Shown piece after piece: positions 1-8,265 of a stretch of 8,265 nt of DNA. Origin of the DNA: a virus (taxonomy: Duplodnaviria; Heunggongvirae; Uroviricota; Caudoviricetes); the IMG/VR virus record IMGVR_UViG_2690316348_000005; one strand, written 5' to 3'. The notes under the pieces are model-generated. The model did no database searches, had not been told where the DNA came from, and worked only from the letters and a program-made list of their open reading frames with translations. The position numbers were made by a program, and so were the translations under genes. Numbering within the stretch: the first letter of the stretch is position 1; each line of letters opens with the position of its first letter.

Positions 1-73
1 AGGGAAAAATATCATCAGATGGCTGCTTAAAAAAAGAACAAATGGTAGTGTCCGCTATTGCCAGTACACCTCA
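1..73. repeat. Left arm of a 73-bp perfect terminal inverted repeat; reverse complement of 8193..8265
   Basis: Base-by-base comparison of 1..73 with the reverse complement of 8193..8265 gives 73/73 identity; the match ends at position 74 (t versus g). The arm contains the ATG of ORF 42..272. Confidence 0.9.
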
Positions 74-272
74 TCCATCACCGAAAAAAATTGGCTTTTA
101 CACCATTGGCGATAAAAGCATTTACCTGTATGACCTACGCCGCATGGATGAAATCATGGAGGCTCTTGATAATCGTTCGTCGATGGATTGGTGTGTTGCT
201 GTTCATGATATGAATGCAGGGTTTGATGAAAAGATTTTGTTCCCCTCATCAGTTGAAAGCACTGCGGGTTAA
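42..272 (+). CDS. Hypothetical protein, 76 aa; the reading frame is open back to the window start, so the gene may begin upstream
   Basis: ORF with ATG at 42 and TAA at 270..272. No Shine-Dalgarno sequence upstream of 42 and no in-frame stop between position 3 and 42. No family recognised. Confidence 0.3.
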   Translation: MVVSAIASTPHPSPKKIGFYTIGDKSIYLYDLRRMDEIMEALDNRSSMDWCVAVHDMNAGFDEKILFPSSVESTAG

Positions 273-282
273 GGAGTAACAC

Positions 283-450
283 ATGACCACTATTACCAAA
301 GAACGTATTGAATTGTTCATTAAAAACCCGCTTGAAAACGGGCTTACCCGTGGTGAACAAATGGAACTGGCACGGATTGCGCTGGCATCGCTGGAAGCAG
401 AGCCGGTTGTGTTCTGGTTTGAAAAATATCAAGAAGGGGCTACGGCATGA
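283..450 (+). CDS. Hypothetical small protein, 55 aa (not in the supplied ORF track because it is under 60 aa)
   Basis: ATG at 283 preceded by a consensus AAGGAG Shine-Dalgarno at optimal spacing. Stop TGA 448..450 overlaps the next ATG (ATGA). Shares an N-terminal MTTxT and an IAL(A/V)SL(E/A)AEP motif with the following ORF. Confidence 0.5.
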
Positions 451-791
451 CGACTTTTACCAGAGAGCAGTTAATAGCTCACGCAGAGGAGACTATTGAA
501 GCACAGAGACTGTGCATACCGGGCACAATCGACCATGACATCATCCGCACATATAAGATGGATATTGCTGTTCTGGAAATCGCACTGGTATCGCTGGCAG
601 CAGAGCCAGCCGGTAAATTGCATGAATACAAACCAGTGGGATATCAGCGTCTGGTCGATGAGTTAACCATGCTGGTAAAGCAGTTAACCTGGCAACTGAG
701 GAAAGCGAAGCCAGACTGCAAATTACCGGATAAGGCGATGAGTTATCTGGAGCGGAACGGACTGATAAGCGTGGAGGATATTTTACGATGA
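447..791 (+). CDS. Hypothetical protein, 114 aa; paralog-like to the 283..450 product
   Basis: ATG at 447 overlaps the upstream stop. Shared motifs with the preceding ORF. Position is typical of small nin-region genes in lambdoid phages. Confidence 0.5.
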
Positions 792-871
792 CCTGGCCTG
801 AAGCATTAACAACGGTAGGAATTGCGATGGCGGTGGCGCTGGTGGTGTATTCGATTTGCCGCTGGGGATAA
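788..871 (+). CDS. Possible 27-aa hydrophobic peptide ([27 protein letters not shown]), translationally coupled to the upstream gene
   Basis: ATG 788..790 overlaps the TGA 789..791 of the upstream ORF (ATGA). One predicted transmembrane-like hydrophobic stretch. Very short, so coding status is uncertain. Confidence 0.25.
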
Positions 872-1082
872 AAACGGTTTGCGGGAAAAGGAGAGTTAAG
901 TAGAATTGCAGCGGGTGCTTGAGGCTATCTGTCTCAGGCATGAACACCAAAAGGCAGATAGAGAAAAGCCCCAGTTAACATTACGCGTCCGGCAAGACGC
1001 TTAACATTAATCTGAGGCTCAATCTATGAACGGCAAATCTAGGTTAGCCTCTTACGTGCCGAAAGGCAAGGAGAAGCAGGCT

Positions 1083-1238
1083 ATGAAGCAGCAAAAGGCG
1101 ATGTTAATCGCCCTGATCGTCATCTGTTTAACCGTCATAGTGACGGCACTGGTAACGAGGAAAGACCTCTGCGAGGTACGAATTCGAACCGGCCAGACGG
1201 AGGTCGCTGTCTTCACAGCTTACGAACCTGAGGAGTAA
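1083..1238 (+). CDS. hokD: Hok/Gef-family type I toxin (HokD/RelF-like), 51 aa
   Basis: Translation MKQQKAMLIALIVICLTVIVTALVTRKDLCEVRIRTGQTEVAVFTAYEPEE matches my recollection of E. coli HokD. The ORF-track start at 1026 is an in-frame upstream extension. The gene is followed by a structured 3' region and a strong intrinsic terminator. Confidence 0.85.
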   Translation: MKQQKAMLIALIVICLTVIVTALVTRKDLCEVRIRTGQTEVAVFTAYEPEE

Positions 1239-1306
1239 GAGACCAGGCGGGGGAGAAATCCCTCGCCACCTCTGATGGGTCAGGCATCCTCAATGCACCC
1301 ACACTT

Positions 1307-1333
1307 AACCCGCTTCGGCGGGTTTTTGTTTTT
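1307..1333 (+). terminator. Rho-independent terminator downstream of hok
   Basis: Stem CCCGC (1309..1313), loop TTCG, stem GCGGG (1318..1322), followed by TTTTTGTTTTT. Confidence 0.75.
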
Positions 1334-1346
1334 ATTTTCAACGCGT

Positions 1347-1376
1347 TTGAAGTTTTAGATGGTGCCGGAATAGAAT
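1347..1376 (+). promoter_or_regulatory. Candidate sigma70 promoter upstream of the rem-like ORF
   Basis: -35 TTGAAG (1347..1352), 18-bp spacer, -10 TAGAAT (1371..1376). Sequence match only. Confidence 0.3.
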
Positions 1377-1458
1377 CAAAAATACTTAAGTAGCGCGCAG
1401 GGAGAAGAGGGATGGACCCCGAACAGGGGAGTGCTATTTATCTGGAAGGATTCTGTTG

Positions 1459-1740
1459 ATGAAAATCGAAGAATTACGTGAAATTTTTAGTGAAGATGGC
1501 CTCTATACTGTGCGCGTTGAGAATGGCGCTATTGTCAGCCACTGCCTTCCAGACTACACAATTCTGATAATTCAGCCGTCTTTGCCAGCAGGCACGGGCG
1601 GCGCTCTCACGCATTTAAATCTGATTGGTACCAGCATCCCCCATGCACTGAAGAACAGGCCGAATGGCTCATTCAGTGTTACCGCAGGCGCGGATGCGAG
1701 GTTAAAAAAGCCCTTAGCCTCGACTACCGTCACTGGATAA
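1459..1740 (+). CDS. Hypothetical protein, about 93 aa; Rem-like by position between hok and the DUF968 gene
   Basis: ORF with ATG at 1459 (the ORF track starts at TTG 1456) and an AAGGA-like ribosome-binding site upstream. The identity is from synteny with the Qin prophage order, not from sequence recognition. Confidence 0.4.
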   Translation: MKIEELREIFSEDGLYTVRVENGAIVSHCLPDYTILIIQPSLPAGTGGALTHLNLIGTSIPHALKNRPNGSFSVTAGADARLKKPLASTTVTG

Positions 1741-1815
1741 TCTCCGTCAGGCTCCCTTACTCCGAACGGCCAACGCGTCCGTCCCGCACATTCCAGCAAC
1801 GGATCTGGAGGTAAT

Positions 1816-2874
1816 GTGCGGGTATTACTTCGACCTGTTCTGGTACCGGAACTCGGTCTGGTTATCGTTAAGCCAGGCCGTGAATCAATGTCAGCATTCC
1901 ATAACGGCAGAATACTGGTGGAGCCGGAACCAAAAAGCATGCGTAATCTGCCGTCCGGGGTCGTTCCTGCCGCTCGCCAGCCGCTGGTGGAAGACAAAAC
2001 ATTGCTGCCGTTTTTCAGTAACGCACGGGTGATTCGTGCTGCTGGTGGTGCTGGTGCATTGTCTGACTGGCTGTTGCGCCATATTAAATCCTGCCAGTGG
2101 CCACACGGCGATTATCATCACAGCGAAACCGTCATTCACCGTTATGGTACCGGCGCAATGGTGTTGTGCTGGCACTGCGACAACCAGCTGCGTGACCAGA
2201 CATCCGAATCACTCGAGCAACTTGCTCATCAAAACCTGTCAGCATGGATGATTGACGTCATCGGTCACGCAATAAGCGGTACGCAGGAGCGTGAATTATC
2301 TCTGGCTGAATTATCCTGGTGGGCGGTCCGCAATCAGGTGGCGGACGCGCTACCGGAAGCGGTATTACGTCGTTCGCTGGGGTTGCGTGCGGAAAAAATT
2401 CGCTCTGTGTACAGTGAAAGCGACATCATACCGGGAGAGCAGACAGCCACCAGCATACTGAAGCAGCGCACAAAAAATATTGCGTTACTGCCTCACGTCC
2501 ACCAGCAACAGAACCCACCACAGGAAAAGACGGTGGTCAGCATTGCCGTTGATCCGGAGTCACCGGCTCAGTATCTCCAGCGCCAGAAATCACAACGGGA
2601 AGAGATGCCTGTATACACGCGCTGGGTAAAAACGCAGAAATGCATGACGTGTGGCAATCAGGCAGATGATCCGCATCACATCATTGGTCATGGACTGGGA
2701 GGGATGGGAACAAAGGCTGATGATTTGTTTGTTATTCCGTTATGCCGTAAATGCCGTAACGAACTACATGCCGGAGTAAAAGATTTTGAAGAGAAACACG
2801 GCAGTCAGCTGTTGTTGCTGATTCGTTTTTTAATGCACGCGAGAAATTCGGGTGTTCTGAAGTGGAAAGCATAA
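1816..2874 (+). CDS. DUF968/YdfU-like prophage protein with a C-terminal HNH-like Cys/His motif, 352 aa
   Basis: Long ORF with GTG start at 1816 and a GGAGG Shine-Dalgarno 4 nt upstream. C-terminal CMTCGNQADDPHHIIGHG...IPLCRKCRNELH resembles an HNH/zinc-finger motif. The stop is immediately followed by the rusA ATG. Start codon is uncertain; an internal ATG near 1888 is an alternative. Confidence 0.65.
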   Translation: MRVLLRPVLVPELGLVIVKPGRESMSAFHNGRILVEPEPKSMRNLPSGVVPAARQPLVEDKTLLPFFSNARVIRAAGGAGALSDWLLRHIKSCQWPHGDYHHSETVIHRYGTGAMVLCWHCDNQLRDQTSESLEQLAHQNLSAWMIDVIGHAISGTQERELSLAELSWWAVRNQVADALPEAVLRRSLGLRAEKIRSVYSESDIIPGEQTATSILKQRTKNIALLPHVHQQQNPPQEKTVVSIAVDPESPAQYLQRQKSQREEMPVYTRWVKTQKCMTCGNQADDPHHIIGHGLGGMGTKADDLFVIPLCRKCRNELHAGVKDFEEKHGSQLLLLIRFLMHARNSGVLKWKA

Positions 2875-3255
2875 ATGACCGAGCGCATAGAATTTGTTTT
2901 ACCTTACCCGCCGACGGTGAACACTTACTGGCGTCGTCGTGGCAGCACATATTTTGTATCAAAAGCCGGGGAGCGTTATCGCCGGGCAGTGGCGCTTATT
3001 GTTCGCCAGCAGCGGCTGAAATTAAGCCTGTCCGGAAGGTTGGCAATAAAAATTATTGCAGAACCACCGGATAAGCGCCGCCGTGACCTGGACAATATTC
3101 TGAAAGCGCCGCTGGATGCGCTGACGCATGCGGGGTTGCTAATGGACGATGAGCAGTTTGATGAAATCAATATCGTTCGTGCTCAGCCAGTATCTGGTGG
3201 ACGTCTGGGGGTGAAGATTTATCCCATAATGCTTGAAGGGCAGGTCAAAAAATGA
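2875..3255 (+). CDS. rusA: RusA-family Holliday junction resolvase, 126 aa
   Basis: Translation carries the RusA-like core ...PPDKRRRDLDNILKAPLDALTHAGLLMDDEQ... with conserved acidic residues, and the size matches RusA. Sits directly upstream of the Q-like gene, as in lambdoid nin regions. Confidence 0.88.
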   Translation: MTERIEFVLPYPPTVNTYWRRRGSTYFVSKAGERYRRAVALIVRQQRLKLSLSGRLAIKIIAEPPDKRRRDLDNILKAPLDALTHAGLLMDDEQFDEINIVRAQPVSGGRLGVKIYPIMLEGQVKK

Positions 3256-4073
3256 AACTGGAAGATTTACCGAAATACTACTCCCCAAAATCCCCCGGCC
3301 TGACTGATGCATCGGCCTCAACGTCGAAAGATGCGCTGAGTATCACTGATGTGATGGCCGCGCAGGGCATGACACAGAATCGGGCTGAGATGGGGGTTTC
3401 TGCGTTCCTTGGGAAAATGGGCATTAGTATGAATGACAGAGAGCGGGCAACAGAATTGCTGACAGAATATGCACTCAGTCGGTGTGATCGCGTGGCGGCG
3501 TTAAGAAAACTCCCGGCAGAAATAAAACCGGCAGTGATGCGTATTATGGCTTCGTATGCGTTTGAAGATTATGCCCGTAGCGCGGCGAGCAAAAAACAGT
3601 GCCCCTGCTGTCACGGAAAAAAATTTATTGAAAGCGAGGTTTTTACAAACAAGATCCAGTATCCGGATGGTAAGCCGCCGGTATGGGCAAAGTGTACGAA
3701 AGGTGTGTATCCGTCTTACTGGGAAGAATGGAAAAAAGTCAGGGAGGTGGTAAAAGTTGCCTGTCCGGAGTGTGGCGGAAAGGGTGAGGTTTCCACCGCC
3801 TGTAAGGATTGCCGTGGGCGTGGTGTCGCCATTCATCGTGAAGAGTCGGTAAAACGTGGTATGCCTGTTATCAGAGACTGCCAGCGTTGTGGTGGTCGTG
3901 GCTATGAAAGACTACCATCAACGGAGGCATTTAATGCTATATGCGAGGTGACAAACCAGATAACACGCGCGTCATGGGAAAAAACAGTTAAGAAATTTTA
4001 TGATGCGCTGGTGACCCGGTTTGATATTGAAGAAGCATGGGCTGAGCGGCAGTTAAAAAAGGTAACTAGGTAA
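3252..4073 (+). CDS. Putative late-gene antiterminator Q-like protein with four CxxCxGxG zinc-finger repeats, 273 aa
   Basis: ATG overlaps the rusA stop (ATGA). Contains CPCCHGKK, CPECGGKG, CKDCRGRG and CQRCGGRG repeats. Lies immediately upstream of a pR'-like promoter whose initial transcribed sequence is ACGATGGG. The Q assignment is by position and zinc motifs, not by a confirmed homology match. Confidence 0.6.
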   Translation: MKLEDLPKYYSPKSPGLTDASASTSKDALSITDVMAAQGMTQNRAEMGVSAFLGKMGISMNDRERATELLTEYALSRCDRVAALRKLPAEIKPAVMRIMASYAFEDYARSAASKKQCPCCHGKKFIESEVFTNKIQYPDGKPPVWAKCTKGVYPSYWEEWKKVREVVKVACPECGGKGEVSTACKDCRGRGVAIHREESVKRGMPVIRDCQRCGGRGYERLPSTEAFNAICEVTNQITRASWEKTVKKFYDALVTRFDIEEAWAERQLKKVTR

Positions 4074-4078
4074 CAAGG

Positions 4079-4114
4079 TTGATTTTTCCGGAATCTGTGG
4101 TAAATTCGTTATAA
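4079..4114 (+). promoter_or_regulatory. pR'-like late promoter with a likely qut region
   Basis: -35 TTGATT (4079..4084), 16-bp spacer, -10 TAAATT (4101..4106), then ACGATGGG. This closely resembles the lambda pR' -10 and initial transcribed sequence as I recall it. Confidence 0.6.
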
Positions 4115-4154
4115 CGATGGGCGTTTTATGCCTGACGTTAGAAGAGTTTCTACA

Positions 4155-4178
4155 ACCCGCCGCCGAGCGGGTTTTTTA
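4155..4178 (+). terminator. tR'-like intrinsic terminator, about 65 nt downstream of the putative late transcription start
   Basis: Stem CCCGC (4156..4160), loop CGCCGA, stem GCGGG (4167..4171), then TTTTTT (4172..4177). Confidence 0.65.
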
Positions 4179-4297
4179 TGACTGAAATCGCGTCAGTACA
4201 GTAAACGCGCTGGTGGCGGTGAATACCTGTCTTTCAGCTTGCTGGCTTTTTCGACAAGAGTTATTGGTGTGTCACGTTAACCGGAAAAGGAAAAGAC

Positions 4298-4495
4298 ATG
4301 CTAAAACAGCAGGATATGACAGAAACCGCCAGAGTGGTGTTTAATGAATTAAGCGTTACCGAACCGGCGACAGTCGGGGAGATAGCGCAGAATACTTACC
4401 TTTCACGCGAACGCTGCCAGTTAATACTGACCCAGCTGGTTATGGCGGGTCTGGCAGACTATCAGTTCGGTTGTTACAGACGCCTTCCGCAGTGA
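4298..4495 (+). CDS. Small putative winged-helix DNA-binding protein, 65 aa
   Basis: ATG at 4298 with an AAGGAAAAG ribosome-binding site upstream. The segment TVGEIAQNTYLSRERCQLILTQLVMAGL has a helix-turn-helix-like pattern. No specific family recognised. Confidence 0.45.
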   Translation: MLKQQDMTETARVVFNELSVTEPATVGEIAQNTYLSRERCQLILTQLVMAGLADYQFGCYRRLPQ

Positions 4496-4524
4496 AGGCT
4501 TTTTTATTTGTGGTAAATGGGCGG

Positions 4525-4551
4525 CTGGTGGGTGTTAGGGGCACCCACCAG
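4525..4551 (+). other. Perfect 10-bp stem hairpin (CTGGTGGGTG / CACCCACCAG, 7-nt loop) between the small wHTH gene and the methyltransferase
   Basis: Exact inverted repeat read from the sequence. Not followed by a T-run, so it is unlikely to be an intrinsic terminator. Confidence 0.4.
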
Positions 4552-4645
4552 CCATCTGCTCATGCGTTGGGTTCACAAGCAAACCTCAGGCCCACTGCTT
4601 TGCGCAAAAGCAGAATGAGCCTATCAGAGACAGGCTTAATGATCC

Positions 4646-5704
4646 ATGCTTAATACTGTAAAAATATCCAGTTGTGAGTTAATCAACGCCGACTGCCTGG
4701 AATTTATCCGGTCGTTACCCGAAAATTCTGTTGACCTGATAGTCACGGACCCGCCGTACTTTAAAGTGAAGCCTGAGGGCTGGGATAACCAGTGGAAGGG
4801 CGACGATGATTACCTGAAGTGGCTGGACCAGTGTCTGGCGCAGTTCTGGCGGGTGCTGAAACCTGCCGGAAGTCTTTACCTGTTCTGTGGTCATCGCCTG
4901 GCATCTGATATCGAAATCATGATGCGTGAACGCTTCAGTGTGCTGAACCATATTATCTGGGCGAAGCCGTCCGGACGCTGGAACGGATGCAACAAGGAAA
5001 GCCTGCGGGCGTATTTCCCCGCCACAGAGCGCATTCTGTTCGCGGAACATTATCAGGGGCCGTATCGTCCGAAAGATGCCGGGTATGCGGCGAAGGGCAG
5101 TGCACTGAAACAGCATGTGATGGCCCCGCTGATTTCTTACTTTCGTGATGCGCGAGCTGCCCTGGGGATAACGGCAAAACAGATTGCAGATGCCACAGGA
5201 AAGAAAAACATGGTGTCGCACTGGTTCAGTGCCGGTCAGTGGCAGTTGCCGAATGAAAGCGATTATCTGAAATTACAGGCGCTGTTTGCCCGGGTGGCAG
5301 AAGAGAAGCATCGGCGTGGTGAACTGGAAAAGCTCCACCACCAGCTGGTGGATACGTATACCTCACTGAACCGGCAGTATGCGGAGCTGCTGAGTGAATA
5401 TAAACATCTGCGGCGGTATTTTGGCGTGACGGTGCAGGTGCCGTATACCGATGTGTGGACGCATAAACCGGTGCAGTTCTATCCCGGGAAACATCCGTGC
5501 GAAAAACCGGCAGAAATGCTGCAGCAGATAATCAGCGCTAGCAGTCGTCCGGGTGACCTGATTGCAGATTTTTTCATGGGGTTGGGTTCGACAGTGAAAG
5601 CGGCACTGGCGCTCGGGCGTCGTGCAATTGGCGTTGAGCTGGAGACTGAACGTTTTGAGCAGACGGTTCGGGAAGTACAGGATTTAGTCAGCCAGAACGG
5701 ATGA
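4646..5704 (+). CDS. Orphan beta-class DNA methyltransferase (N6-adenine/N4-cytosine family, probably N6-adenine), 352 aa
   Basis: Catalytic motif IV DPPY (LIVTDPPYF) lies N-terminal to the SAM-binding motif I FxGxG (DLIADFFMGLGST), which is the beta-class order. No adjacent restriction endonuclease candidate is visible. Confidence 0.88.
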   Translation: MLNTVKISSCELINADCLEFIRSLPENSVDLIVTDPPYFKVKPEGWDNQWKGDDDYLKWLDQCLAQFWRVLKPAGSLYLFCGHRLASDIEIMMRERFSVLNHIIWAKPSGRWNGCNKESLRAYFPATERILFAEHYQGPYRPKDAGYAAKGSALKQHVMAPLISYFRDARAALGITAKQIADATGKKNMVSHWFSAGQWQLPNESDYLKLQALFARVAEEKHRRGELEKLHHQLVDTYTSLNRQYAELLSEYKHLRRYFGVTVQVPYTDVWTHKPVQFYPGKHPCEKPAEMLQQIISASSRPGDLIADFFMGLGSTVKAALALGRRAIGVELETERFEQTVREVQDLVSQNG

Positions 5705-5744
5705 TATTGAAGAATTAATTACGCGTCGTTATTATGCGGCTCCC

Positions 5745-5820
5745 GGCCCTTTAGCTCAGTGGTGAGAGCGAGCGACTCATAATCGCCAGGTCGCTGGTTC
5801 AAATCCAGCAAGGGCCACCA
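5745..5820 (+). tRNA. ileZ: tRNA-Ile2-like, anticodon CAT (presumed lysidine-modified, reads AUA)
   Basis: Manual cloverleaf: 7-bp acceptor GGCCCTT/AAGGGCC, D-arm with GG, anticodon loop CTCATAA, T-loop TTCAAAT, encoded CCA. Overall resemblance to E. coli ileX. The Ile-versus-Met call rests on that resemblance. Confidence 0.8.
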
Positions 5821-5827
5821 TCACATA

Positions 5828-5904
5828 CCGCCATTAGCTCATCAGGAAAGAGCGCCAGCCTTCGAAGCTGGCTGCGCGGGGTTCAAGTCCCCGATGGCGG
5901 TCCA
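5828..5904 (+). tRNA. argN: tRNA-Arg, anticodon TCG
   Basis: Manual cloverleaf: acceptor CCGCCAT/ATGGCGG (C1-G72), anticodon stem CCAGC/GCTGG, loop CTTCGAA, T-loop TTCAAGT, encoded CCA. The gene symbol is by position in a 933W-like ileZ-argN-argO cluster and is tentative. Confidence 0.75.
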
Positions 5905-5917
5905 TTATCTGCATCAT

Positions 5918-5994
5918 GCGTTGTTAGCTCAGCCGGACAGAGCAATTGCCTTCTAAGCAATCGGTCACTGGTTCGAATCCAGTACAGCGCGCCA
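5918..5994 (+). tRNA. argO: tRNA-Arg, anticodon TCT (reads AGA)
   Basis: Manual cloverleaf: acceptor GCGTTGT/ACAGCGC with a U4-G69 wobble, anticodon stem ATTGC/GCAAT, loop CTTCTAA, T-loop TTCGAAT, encoded CCA. The gene symbol is by position and is tentative. Confidence 0.8.
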
Positions 5995-6128
5995 TATTCA
6001 TTCTTCCAGATTCCTTCCGGCAGAGCCTTATACTGAAATATACCTGGCTCAGGATATTGTTGAAAATATTTTATGTTTGTCAAAAATAAAAGTTCTGTTA
6101 AGTATTGATTGAGTGTTTGTTATACGGT

Positions 6129-6458
6129 CTAATGGTTTTTTCAGCATTAAATATTTATCATTCATATGGTGTGGGTAGAGTGAATATTGATGAGGCGTCG
6201 GGGTGTTTCATCCTTAGGCAGCGTATTGATATAGTCAATGCAGCACGAGCAAAGGCCTTCAGCCGTTTGACAGTTTTGTTCTGTACTCCTGATCGTCTTT
6301 CGGGAAGAGACGTTATTATTCTGAATAGTGATGCTATACAGAGGGTTTGCGATGAGTTCATGGTTGCTAATTCAGAATTATTTGCTCTTGTTCAGGAGTA
6401 CAACAGAATAGCCAGGACCTGTGGTATGGATGAACTTCGGATTACTCATCTGGGGTAG
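6129..6458 (+). CDS. Hypothetical protein (about 109 aa from ATG 6129; 117 aa from TTG 6105) in the segment inserted after the first tRNA cluster
   Basis: ORF beginning in an AT-rich stretch with a candidate promoter TTGATT (6105..6110), 17-bp spacer, TCTAAT. No clear Shine-Dalgarno and no recognised family. Confidence 0.3.
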   Translation, partial: LMVFSALNIYHSYGVGRVNIDEASGCFILRQRIDIVNAARAKAFSRLTVLFCTPDRLSGRDVIILNSDAIQRVCDEFMVANSELFALVQEYNRIARTCGMDELRITHLG

Positions 6459-6650
6459 ATACATATCTGGATTATCACCTGTTACGGTAAAAAGTGATTG
6501 CTTACTGTTTTTGTGAATGGCATTGCAGCAGCCGGATAATGTCAGTGCTGGCTGACGGTGTGCTGGTGGCGGGTGTGGTGGTTGTTGCTTTCCCGTTGCT
6601 GAAAAAGAAAACGCCAGACTGTTAGCCGGGTATCAGTTAGCGGGAGAAAT

Positions 6651-6855
6651 TTTTAAATACTTCACAATTCAGGCGGTTGACTGTTGTCTGGTTTGCGGGG
6701 AGTTTGTTAAAAGAAACTGGCATGGTGAATCCCCCTGTGCGGAGGGGCAATCAGCGAGTAGGTATATGGGATAATCGCGGATTCAGGTGCTGGTACTGAA
6801 TTCACCGGGAGGCACCCGGCACCATGCAATGGCACATAGCGCCACTCTCCAGCCC
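6651..6855 (+). repeat. Direct repeat B, copy 1 (about 205 bp), GC-rich and structured; truncated just before the terminator that ends copy 2
   Basis: Matches 7215..7419, identical over the last ~165 bp with about 6 mismatches in the first ~40 bp. Contains hairpins such as CCCCCTGTGCGGAGGGG. Confidence 0.85.
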
Positions 6856-6928
6856 AAAGTACAGGATTTAGTCAGCCAGAACGGATGATATTGAAGAATT
6901 AATTACGCGTCGTTATTATGCGGCTCCC

Positions 6929-7004
6929 GGCCCTTTAGCTCAGTGGTGAGAGCGAGCGACTCATAATCGCCAGGTCGCTGGTTCAAATCCAGCAAGGGCC
7001 ACCA
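6929..7004 (+). tRNA. ileZ: tRNA-Ile2-like, anticodon CAT, second copy
   Basis: Identical to 5745..5820. Confidence 0.8.
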
Positions 7005-7011
7005 TCACATA

Positions 7012-7088
7012 CCGCCATTAGCTCATCAGGAAAGAGCGCCAGCCTTCGAAGCTGGCTGCGCGGGGTTCAAGTCCCCGATGGCGGTCCA
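7012..7088 (+). tRNA. argN: tRNA-Arg, anticodon TCG, second copy
   Basis: Identical to 5828..5904. Confidence 0.75.
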
Positions 7089-7101
7089 TTATCTGCATCA
7101 T

Positions 7102-7178
7102 GCGTTGTTAGCTCAGCCGGACAGAGCAATTGCCTTCTAAGCAATCGGTCACTGGTTCGAATCCAGTACAACGCGCCA
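7102..7178 (+). tRNA. argO: tRNA-Arg, anticodon TCT, second copy with a Watson-Crick U4-A69 pair
   Basis: Identical to 5918..5994 except G69 to A (position 7171), which converts the U4-G69 wobble into U-A. Confidence 0.8.
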
Positions 7179-7192
7179 CACTTATTTTCCCT

Positions 7193-7218
7193 GGCTCGCT
7201 TTTGCGGGCCTTTTTTTT
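7193..7218 (+). terminator. Intrinsic terminator immediately after the second tRNA cluster
   Basis: Stem GGCTCGC / GCGGGCC (one G-U pair), loop TTTT, followed by TTTTTTTT (7211..7218). There is no equivalent after the first tRNA cluster. Confidence 0.7.
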
Positions 7219-7419
7219 AAATGTCTCACAATTCAGACGGTTGACAGTTGTCTGTTTTGCGGGGAGTTTGTTAAAAGAAACTGGCATGGTGAATCCCCCT
7301 GTGCGGAGGGGCAATCAGCGAGTAGGTATATGGGATAATCGCGGATTCAGGTGCTGGTACTGAATTCACCGGGAGGCACCCGGCACCATGCAATGGCACA
7401 TAGCGCCACTCTCCAGCCC
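7215..7419 (+). repeat. Direct repeat B, copy 2 (about 205 bp)
   Basis: See copy 1. This copy begins with a perfect TTGACA (7242..7247) and is followed by a terminator. Confidence 0.85.
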
Positions 7420-7440
7420 CTCTCCGGAGGGGCTGTTTAT
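7415..7440 (+). terminator. Intrinsic terminator at the boundary between repeat B copy 2 and the AT-rich island
   Basis: Stem AGCCCCTC (7415..7422), loop TCCG, stem GAGGGGCT (7427..7434), followed by GTTTATATTGATTTT. Confidence 0.65.
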
Positions 7441-7469
7441 ATTGATTTTGTCAGATGTGAGTAAACTCC

Positions 7470-7805
7470 TTATGGACTTTGTTGTTTTAGTCCATAAGGA
7501 CATATTTGCAGAGTGCAACGGTTATTAAAGCATTCATTCAATACGTTATCTGTATTTGTAGGGCATTCCTGGCTATTTTTGATTGAATTCCAGAATGTTT
7601 TATTGAATGGTACTACGTTGTAAATGGTTACAGGTAGCACTTTGTTATTGAGCATGATGCCTGTGTGAGTCAGTGTAAATATACTTTCAGGAGGTAAGAA
7701 AGCATCCGATTGATACCAGATTATTAATTTTATTTTACTCCATATGACTGAAAAAGATATTCCGCATGATGGCTGGATAACTGTATCAATCACAATCCAC
7801 TTCAT
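7470..7805 (-). CDS. Hypothetical protein, 111 aa, in the AT-rich island; the only credible minus-strand gene in the window
   Basis: ATG (complement of 7803..7805) preceded on the minus strand by AAGGAAA with 6-nt spacing. Candidate promoter TTTACA-15-TATACT further upstream on the minus strand. The 3' end overlaps a 12-bp perfect hairpin (7467..7500). No family recognised. Confidence 0.4.
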
Positions 7806-8065
7806 TTAGTTTCCTTGTTTATGCCTTGCTGGTGATGTTCTGAAAAGTATAAATGATATTTTTGAATGTAAACCATAGAGCAGAATTATTTTTCTGATGT
7901 TGTTTATTGTTTATTTAAATGCAGGGTGGTTTATATCTCGTCTTGTAGTTTATCCATGCATATCTGCTTGATAATCAGGTTTTTATTTAAGGTATGGTTT
8001 TGTGTTTTTTCTGTATTACATGTCAGGTATTTTAAAGAATTATTTTTCAGATGGTGGAAAGAACC

Positions 8066-8239
8066 ATGGCATTTAAACACTATGATGTTGTCAGGGCGGC
8101 GCCGCCGTCAGATCTTGCGGAAAAGCTGACACATAAACTGAAAGAGGGCTGGCAGCCGTTTGGTAGTCCGGTGGCCATAACCCCTTATACCCTGAGGTGT
8201 ACTGGCAATAGCGGACACTACCATTTGTTCTTTTTTTAA
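8066..8239 (+). CDS. Small hypothetical protein, 57 aa (62 aa from the alternative ATG at 8051); possibly DUF1737-like
   Basis: ORF with a GGTGGA-like ribosome-binding site before ATG 8066. The EGWQPFG motif reminds me of small prophage proteins found upstream of lysis genes, but this is a weak recollection. The last 47 nt of the CDS lie inside the right terminal inverted repeat. Confidence 0.4.
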   Translation: MAFKHYDVVRAAPPSDLAEKLTHKLKEGWQPFGSPVAITPYTLRCTGNSGHYHLFFF

Positions 8240-8265
8240 GCAGCCATCTGATGATATTTTTCCCT
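8193..8265. repeat. Right arm of the 73-bp perfect terminal inverted repeat
   Basis: Reverse complement equals 1..73 exactly. Contains the C-terminal codons and 3' flank of the 8066..8239 ORF. Confidence 0.9.

Follow-up and report, generated by a model that had tools for sequence, protein, structure and literature searches.

Why should a short stretch of prophage DNA start and finish with the same sequence in opposite orientation? The window, by which we mean the whole stretch of 8,265 nucleotides analysed here, opens with 73 nt (positions 1-73) that are the exact reverse complement of its last 73 nt (positions 8193-8265). As an earlier note on this DNA had reported, the repeats are perfect and sit at both window edges: a comparison of the window with itself found 100% complementarity over 73 nt, ending exactly at 73/74 and 8192/8193. 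We calculate that (8265^2/2)/4^73, about 4e-37, perfect inverted pairs of 73 nt would be expected by chance in 8.3 kb. From sequence comparison we consider it highly probable (roughly 0.93) that each repeat is the tip of a copy of the insertion sequence IS600, the two copies lying in opposite orientation and being cut by a draft-assembly break. The feature is ordinary and already well understood in Shigella and E. coli genomes, and is not a new element.

Both ends of the window are IS600 sequence

The left arm (1-73, plus strand) is the right-hand tip of IS600. Its first 30 nt close the transposase gene orfB, whose stop codon TAA occupies 28-30, and the remaining 43 nt are the right end of the element, finishing in CA. 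The right arm (8193-8265, minus strand) matches the same 73-mer and is the right-hand tip of a second, inverted copy. Among 5,426 finished E. coli genomes, 2,833 carry 100% matches to the 73-mer under features of IS600 or IS3-family transposases, with up to 43 copies per genome. The matches are annotated as 'IS3-like element IS600 family transposase' at 100% over 73 nt, and in one annotated IS600 copy the end of the coding sequence falls at the position equal to window position 30.

The 73-mer also matches, without any difference, the final 73 nt of an IS600 element that was delimited in one locus (L003), with the transposase stop codon and the CA end among them. The full element there is 1,264 bp long, starts with TG, ends with CA and is present as two identical copies (start TGAGGTAG, end ACACCTCA). 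The alignment of its left and right inverted repeats, IRL and IRR, is imperfect and extends over about 27 nt. The end of the element that faces into the window reads ...CCTCA at position 73.

The earlier note had argued that a transposon was not supported, as no transposase is encoded inside the window. This argument does not hold, since the arms are the termini of a transposable element and its transposase gene continues outside the window; only the last 30 nt of the two-part transposase lie inside, at positions 1-30. In the finished loci, the transposase genes adjoining both junctions carry the HTH_Tnp_1 (Pfam: PF01527) and rve (Pfam: PF00665/PF13683) domains and are annotated either as a 385-aa fusion or as ORFs of 100 aa and 272 aa.

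Compared with a typical IS600 of the IS3 family, the window holds just 73 nt of each copy, and the usual 3-bp target-site duplication is absent at both window junctions (inner TCC... and ...CCC; outer ...TTT and CTA...). The absence does not speak against the identity of the arms. From the flanking sequences, it indicates that the two junction copies probably underwent later recombination between IS copies. A TCC target duplication is present at the right IS600 of the related locus A in L003.

Position of the junctions and the likely origin of the contig ends

Both exact junctions are found in finished Shigella sonnei chromosomes, including CP000038 (strain Ss046), HE616528 (strain 53G) and CP019689 (strain 75/02), and each of them is joined to a full-length IS600 of 1,264 bp; for the right junction this was seen in four finished S. 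sonnei loci (L013, L016, L031 and L034). The earlier note had suspected that the repeat reaches beyond the window, as it does, for 1,264 bp in finished genomes; the second prophage that it expected there is an IS instead. Past the IS600 copies lie unrelated flanks, ...AATTTT and CTAATC.... Across public assemblies the left junction is on record in 795 blocks and the right junction in 888, each adjoining different unique sequence, and neither occurs in any of the 5,426 finished E. coli genomes. Each junction belongs to one chromosomal context in S. sonnei, save for IS-mediated exchange of flanks. The two junctions lie at different loci in all of the approximately 50 finished S. sonnei chromosomes that were read, and in CP022457.1 they are 734,401 bp apart, in different prophage remnants. 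Two other draft contigs carry both junctions, with different crossover points.

We infer that the window corresponds to a complete contig and that the number 73 is the word length of the assembler. The contig would stem from a short-read draft assembly of S. sonnei or a very close relative, and each of its ends would enter an IS600 copy, the two copies lying in opposite orientation with their right ends facing inward. Because many identical IS600 copies are present, the assembler could not continue and would have stopped inside the repeat, keeping a fixed word-length of 73 nt at each end. Such a fixed stretch of the repeat would turn the two ends into perfect reverse complements of each other and put them right at the edges of the window. 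Beyond the window, the real chromosome would have a complete 1,264-bp IS600, with its own transposase, as the continuation of each arm. Five IS are expanded in all Shigella, IS600 among them, and a median of 286 IS insertions was detected per S. sonnei chromosome (PMC7373316).

The equal length of the arms is set by the assembler. Other draft contigs with the same junctions end 32, 37, 51, 125, 146 or 148 nt into IS600, and one contig (L023) has 107 nt of IS600 at both ends and so displays a 107-nt terminal inverted repeat. These tip lengths do not serve as an argument for odd k-mer sizes, since one of them (32) is even and some of the loci may end short of the true end of their contig. The window resembles other repeat-induced contig breaks in that it stops at a fixed distance into a multicopy repeat at both ends. 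It differs in that both ends hit the same IS end in opposite orientation, which mimics a terminal inverted repeat.

A mosaic prophage interior

The sequence between the arms (74-8192, plus strand) is a lambdoid prophage late-regulatory region, as judged from the Pfam families recorded on identical genes and from colinear prophages. It contains the sok RNA (913-1088), hok (1026-1238), a DUF968/HNH gene (1816-2874), RusA (2875-3255), antiterminator Q (3252-4073), a DNA methyltransferase (4646-5704), a tRNA trio (5745-5994), a 117-aa ORF (6105-6458), DUF3927 (6494-6625) and, on the minus strand, an IraM/PmrD-like gene (7470-7805). Positions 74-8195 are colinear with an ordinary lambdoid prophage in about 496 finished E. 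coli genomes, which have no IS600 at either end and are 94-98% identical to the window interior. The order hok-DUF968-RusA-Q-methylase-tRNAs-DUF3927-IraM-DUF1737 is that of the known late-control regions (PPompW-like, Stx-phage-like). In contrast to these, the window has an extra 564-nt unit with a second tRNA trio and is truncated by IS600 at both ends.

The truncations explain the two ORFs that overlap the arms, which are chimeras of a truncated phage gene and IS sequence. The earlier note had correctly placed the beginning of the first ORF (42..272) in the left arm and the end of the second (8051/8066..8239) in the right arm. It had also taken the left arm for an inverted fragment of the right-hand gene, which encodes DUF1737; the two arms are instead the same IS600 tip. 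ORF 42..272 (plus strand) takes its ATG from the IS600 tip and continues, in the native frame, into what the IS600 truncation has left of a small prophage gene, its 3' part. Window positions 74-272 align to positions 4001-4199 of a locus with the intact gene (L001), where they cover the 3' part of a hypothetical gene of 87 aa (3936-4199); 795 blocks of public assemblies have the exact 76-aa product on record. At the other end, the IS600-truncated DUF1737 gene (8051..8239, plus strand; Pfam: PF08410 on the identical product) has its tail read from the IS tip, whereas the uninterrupted gene in L001 goes on as ...TATACCC^TGATGCAGG.

Base-level mapping traced the interior to two prophage remnants of S. 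sonnei, A and B, of which it is a mosaic, with an additional junction at 6856. The 564-nt extra unit (6856..7419, plus strand), delimited by the same mapping and by the repeats D1 and D2, is made up of ~33 nt from the end of the methylase gene, another, identical tRNA trio (6929-7178) and the 5' portion of the second D2/STnc100 copy. An abrupt junction, J (...CTCTCCAGCCC-A-AAGTACAGG...), links it to the D2 copy before it. J is absent from the 5,426 finished E. coli genomes, IMG/VR, the GTDB representative genomes and the JGI metagenomes. In this search a 200-nt query gave misleading two-piece matches, in which the normal methylase-tRNA-D2 order was joined, and a 60-nt query resolved them. The ORFs that span the first locus switch (5883..6083, minus strand) and J (6787..6888) are not on record. 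Two STnc100-like sRNAs (Rfam: RF02076) are predicted on the plus strand. The first (6691..6842, 102 bits) is cut by J before its terminator hairpin and no terminator follows, and the second (7255..7444, 133.6 bits) is complete, with its terminator at 7414-7435.

Is this mosaic a real chromosomal segment? If the arms are IS600 tips and the 8.1-kb interior is nevertheless truly contiguous, the window would represent a hybrid prophage remnant between two inverted full-length IS600 copies, a reading that we regard as possible, if doubtful. The two paralogous loci could have produced such a hybrid through gene conversion, with the Q or tRNA stretch that they share as the left anchor and IS600 as the right one. 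J would then stem from a 564-nt duplication specific to the strain, and recombination between the IS600 copies could invert the segment. Part of the unusual interior must indeed exist in the sequenced DNA, since J is unique and neither a k-mer nor an overlap assembler could create it from the two reference loci, and since the first locus switch, from the A-specific base 5917 to the B-specific base 5987, takes place within just 71 nt, fewer than 73. Further points in favour of contiguity are that the order tRNA_A-S1-X is natural in other E. coli prophages (at 99.4%), that the gene order minus the 564-nt unit is the common natural one, and that both junctions also occur together on the two other draft contigs. 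However, those contigs differ in their crossover points, and the junctions are at separate loci in the finished S. sonnei chromosomes. Several draft contigs have varied internal re-runs that are unseen in finished genomes, which is the pattern of a tangled assembly, and the last locus switch lies within a 130-nt exact repeat, exceeding 73 nt.

Since the two remnants that make up the mosaic are separated by 734 kb in a finished genome, the source chromosome probably does not hold the whole contig path in one piece, and the contig may be partly mis-joined. The full version of the contiguous reading, a hybrid late-control region bracketed by inverted full-length IS600 copies, with a strain-specific 564-nt duplication and able to flip, appears unlikely to us. 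If the interior were contiguous, the duplication would have provided a second rare-codon tRNA trio and a copy of the STnc100 sRNA that lacks a terminator.

Rejected readings, IS600-mediated inversion and significance

Three further readings of the arms are very improbable. The earlier note had suggested, as an example, that they might belong to a prophage late region present in two long copies of opposite orientation, between which the segment flips. This model draws solely on the fact that the repeat touches the window edges, and we give it hardly any credence: the arms are IS600 rather than prophage sequence, and the IS600 outside is followed by unrelated flanks. Perfect terminal inverted repeats are also what software flags as an 'ITR' genome, so that the window might be taken for a complete 8.3-kb transposon or a linear phage or plasmid genome with its own terminal repeats. 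That is hardly tenable, as no transposase, replication or structural genes are encoded inside, the interior consisting of regulatory and accessory prophage genes. Moreover, each arm is a piece from within a 1,264-bp IS, the true end of that IS is the ...CA facing inward, and the whole unit is found in no other genome. A foldback (hairpin) artefact, in which one contig end is copied in reverse to the other, would give equally perfect inverted ends and is extremely unlikely, given that the junctions are independently widespread and each lies beside different unique sequence. Thus the artefact alternative of the earlier note does not hold as a foldback, while the edge placement and the equal arm length do come from the assembly, through an assembler stopping in a repeat.

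Two known arrangements were also considered and rejected. The geometry of two inverted IS copies around a non-IS segment is shared with the composite transposons Tn10 and Tn5. In contrast to these, the IS pair of the window is 734 kb apart in a finished genome (CP022457.1), the unit occurs at no second insertion site and no target duplication is shared outside the pair. In a related 6.4-kb pair in L003 the right IS has its own TCC duplication, which argues for an independent insertion. An invertible segment of the Hin/Gin/Cin type was rejected, the window having no recombinase ORF and the repeats being IS600 ends.

Homologous recombination between the two repeat copies, which the earlier note had suggested, is plausible, and direct evidence for it comes from CP045932.1. 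In this chromosome the outer flanks of the two junction copies of IS600 are swapped, which is the hallmark of an inversion between IS copies in opposite orientation. If the exchange were a simple reciprocal inversion, the outer flank of the right junction would be ...AAAATTAAAGGG, the reverse complement of the usual flank of the left copy. What inverted here is the chromosomal region of ~734 kb between the copies, and not an 8-kb switch. For the related 6.4-kb IS600-bracketed segment of locus A, no inversion was seen in the ten finished loci shown. IS-mediated inversion is real and already known; for S. sonnei, IS-flanked inversions confirmed by long reads have been reported (PMC12795559).

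No new biology is implied by the window. It is a caution that a perfect terminal inverted repeat on a short contig can be two tips of a multicopy IS at an assembly stop, and tools calling a 'complete genome with ITR' or a 'new transposon' from such ends would be misled. It illustrates how IS600 and paralogous prophage remnants fragment and tangle draft assemblies of Shigella sonnei, and it provides a concrete case in which two specific IS600 copies recombined, inverting about 734 kb of the chromosome.

IS600 at both ends of the window

Positions 8193-8265 are the exact reverse complement of positions 1-73 and the complementarity ends at 73/74, as the earlier note had described. This inverted repeat is real, since by our own arithmetic a perfect 73-nt inverted pair has a chance expectation of ~4e-37. 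Of 5,426 finished E. coli genomes, 2,833 contain the 73-mer at 100% identity, in as many as 43 places each, and the matches lie in features annotated as 'IS3-like element IS600 family transposase'. In one annotated IS600 copy the transposase CDS terminates at the position equivalent to window 30. Therefore positions 1-30 (+ strand, stop codon TAA at 28-30) are the end of the transposase gene and positions 31-73 (+ strand) are the non-coding right end of IS600. Two IS600 copies in the finished chromosome locus L003 share an identical stretch of exactly 1,264 bp, with the 5' start TGAGGTAG, the 3' end ACACCTCA and imperfect terminal repeats. Each arm corresponds to the last 73 nt of this 1,264-bp element, with the true IS end (...CA) directed inward on both sides. 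Thus the window lies between two opposite IS600 copies, of which only the tips are inside. Judged by sequence, the arms are IS600, with which every sequence-based test agreed.

The ORF 42..272 begins within the left arm and the ORF 8051/8066..8239 ends within the right arm, a placement which had been recognised correctly (for the second ORF as 8066..8239). The left arm had also been taken for an inverted fragment of the right-hand gene, which is not the case, as neither arm derives from the gene of the other side. Window 74-272 corresponds to the 3' portion of a short phage gene (positions 3936-4199 in L001, a prophage with an uninterrupted DUF1737 gene), and the ORF 42..272 is the native frame of this truncated gene with an ATG supplied by the IS tip. 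On the right, the DUF1737 gene is interrupted at 8192 and its reading frame continues into the IS tip.

The exact left or right junction was found in none of the finished E. coli genomes searched. Using the two chimeric ORFs as exact-match probes for the junctions in public assemblies, we found the left ORF in 795 blocks and the right one in 888, including dozens of chromosomes of >1 Mb. Among the carriers are CP000038 (S. sonnei Ss046), HE616528 (53G) and CP019689 (75/02). A full-length IS600 with the HTH_Tnp_1 and rve transposase domains adjoins each junction in finished genomes. The repeat does extend outward, as had been proposed, but in finished genomes as a 1,264 bp IS followed by unrelated flanks. 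In 53G (HE616528.1; ~10128-12168 of locus L033), an IS1 is nested within the right-junction IS600; its genes occupy 10330-11027, and the IS600 sequence (positions 1-1126) is found again from 11043 to 12168.

A mosaic of two S. sonnei prophage loci

Without the arms, window 74-8195 is matched by ~496 finished E. coli genomes, colinear and with 94-98% identity, none of which has an IS at either end. The interior is an ordinary lambdoid prophage late-control region with sok/hok, DUF968, RusA, antiterminator Q, DNA methyltransferase, a tRNA trio, DUF3927, IraM/PmrD-like and DUF1737. The hok/sok genes are a type I toxin-antitoxin module at 913-1238, composed of the sok RNA (Rfam: RF01794, 913-1088) and a Hok-family ORF (1026-1238).

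In finished S. sonnei genomes the left and right junctions belong to different prophage remnants, here called loci A and B. Locus A has the order IS600(+), hok ... RusA-126, Q-273, methylase and tRNAs, often with a second, inverted IS600 after 6.4 kb. Locus B has the order IS21, RusA-124, Q-284, tRNAs, DUF3927, IraM and the truncated DUF1737 gene, followed by IS600(-). Both loci are on the same strand in CP022457.1, and the distance between the two IS600 copies, measured from inner end to inner end on the ranges of L007 and L034, is 734,401 bp. When compared base by base, the window switches back and forth between A and B: 1-5986 is locus A, 5918-6855 is locus B without differences, 6857-7385 is locus A and 7256-8265 is locus B. 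The only difference from locus A over the first 5,986 nt is at 4110, intergenic and after Q, where the window has T and every S. sonnei locus and IMG/VR contig compared has C; the T is a SNP private to the source strain.

Two of the switches fall within stretches where A and B are identical, of 69 nt (tRNA-Arg) and of 130 nt (the D2 element, a repeat carrying an STnc100-like sRNA). The third, J (6855-6857), is an abrupt, homology-free join (...CTCTCCAGCCC, A, AAGTACAGG...), which links D2 to the final ~33 nt of the methylase gene. It yields an extra unit of 564 nt (6856-7419) that carries another tRNA trio (Met/Ile-CAT, Arg-TCG, Arg-TCT), identical to the first. J was not found in the 5,426 finished E. 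coli genomes, IMG/VR, the GTDB representative genomes or the JGI metagenomes, and the ORF across it has no record in the gene index. The STnc100 sRNA (Rfam: RF02076) is present twice downstream of the prophage tRNAs. The first (6691-6842) is without a terminator because it is cut by J, and the second (7255-7444) is complete, with a terminator at 7414-7435.

Contiguity and contig ends

The path of the contig is probably not fully contiguous in the chromosome. We consider it rather unlikely that the interior is truly contiguous in the source strain, in which case it could have arisen by gene conversion between A and B, anchored on the left in a shared stretch and on the right in IS600, plus a strain-specific duplication. 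J is not inventable by an assembler, and the first switch spans only 71 nt, with an order that is natural in other E. coli prophages, so part of the odd structure exists in the sequenced DNA. Against contiguity, the contig L023 joins the left of A to the right of B elsewhere, at a 343-nt shared stretch in Q, and UViG_2693429621_000002 (8,160 nt) has both junctions without J and the Q 3' region twice. Further, different re-runs occur in the drafts L050 and L062, and none of these structures is present in any finished chromosome examined. J and the 564-nt unit may be real, as a duplication specific to this strain, or may belong to a tangled assembly; J with the duplicated tRNA trio is the sole unexplained item.

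Internal modules are re-run with differing breakpoints in the IMG/VR drafts L029 and L042 (UViG_2693429621_000002), L050, L062, L025 and L030, with Q 3' twice, methylase-tRNA twice and RusA-Q three times. In L030 a 61-nt tip of IS600 lies in mid-contig. These cases suggest that assemblers repeatedly go astray in this prophage region.

Other drafts that carry these junctions retain 32, 37, 51, 125, 146 or 148 nt of IS600, and L023 (6,236 nt), with both junctions, has 107 nt at each end and thus a 107-nt terminal inverted repeat. The retained IS length therefore depends on the assembly, and within one assembly the two ends retain the same length. This is what graph assemblers are expected to do: where a contig stops in a repeat, they leave a stretch of one word length of that repeat. 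We infer that the window represents a complete contig, for which the assembler used a word length of ~73. IS600 belongs to a group of five IS that have expanded in all Shigella, and S. sonnei chromosomes had a median of 286 detected IS insertions (PMC7373316), so such contig breaks are routine.

Recombination between IS600 copies

The sole IS600 feature lacking at the arms is the target duplication, an absence that recombination would explain. A 3-bp target duplication (TCC) flanks the other IS600 of locus A and is absent from both junction IS600 copies, which points to past recombination between IS copies. In CP045932.1 (L011, 8744-8768) the outer flank of the left-junction IS600 is AATCAAGACTGGCTAAGCTGATTAG, and five other finished genomes (L013, L016, L031, L034 and L037) have exactly the reverse complement of this sequence just outside their right-junction IS600. 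The gene flanks are concordant, with the block of 203-aa ... Dam ... resolvase ... MAPEG on the other side. This exchange of flanks is the signature of inverting the whole region between two inverted IS600 copies, and is direct evidence that the two copies recombined in CP045932.1, which implies an inversion of ~734 kb. The inversion by homologous recombination proposed in the earlier note was therefore right in kind, but in finished genomes it takes place between IS copies over ~734 kb and is not an 8-kb switch. Long reads have confirmed IS-flanked inversions of this species in work already in print (PMC12795559), on S. sonnei.

In S. sonnei L003 (6612-10032), the early genes DUF977 and DUF4014 by the left IS600 are inverted versus the normal prophage order (L001, 1685-4199) and adjoin ompW. 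Within the PPompW-like prophage of S. sonnei there has been an older inversion mediated by IS.

The window failed the tests for an independent element bounded by terminal repeats of its own, and a composite transposon is rejected, there being neither a shared outer duplication nor a second insertion site. An invertase switch, which the earlier note had not supported either, is likewise rejected, since no recombinase is present. With the tests for IS600 passed and those for these alternatives failed, the finding comes down to biology that is already known, together with an effect of assembly.
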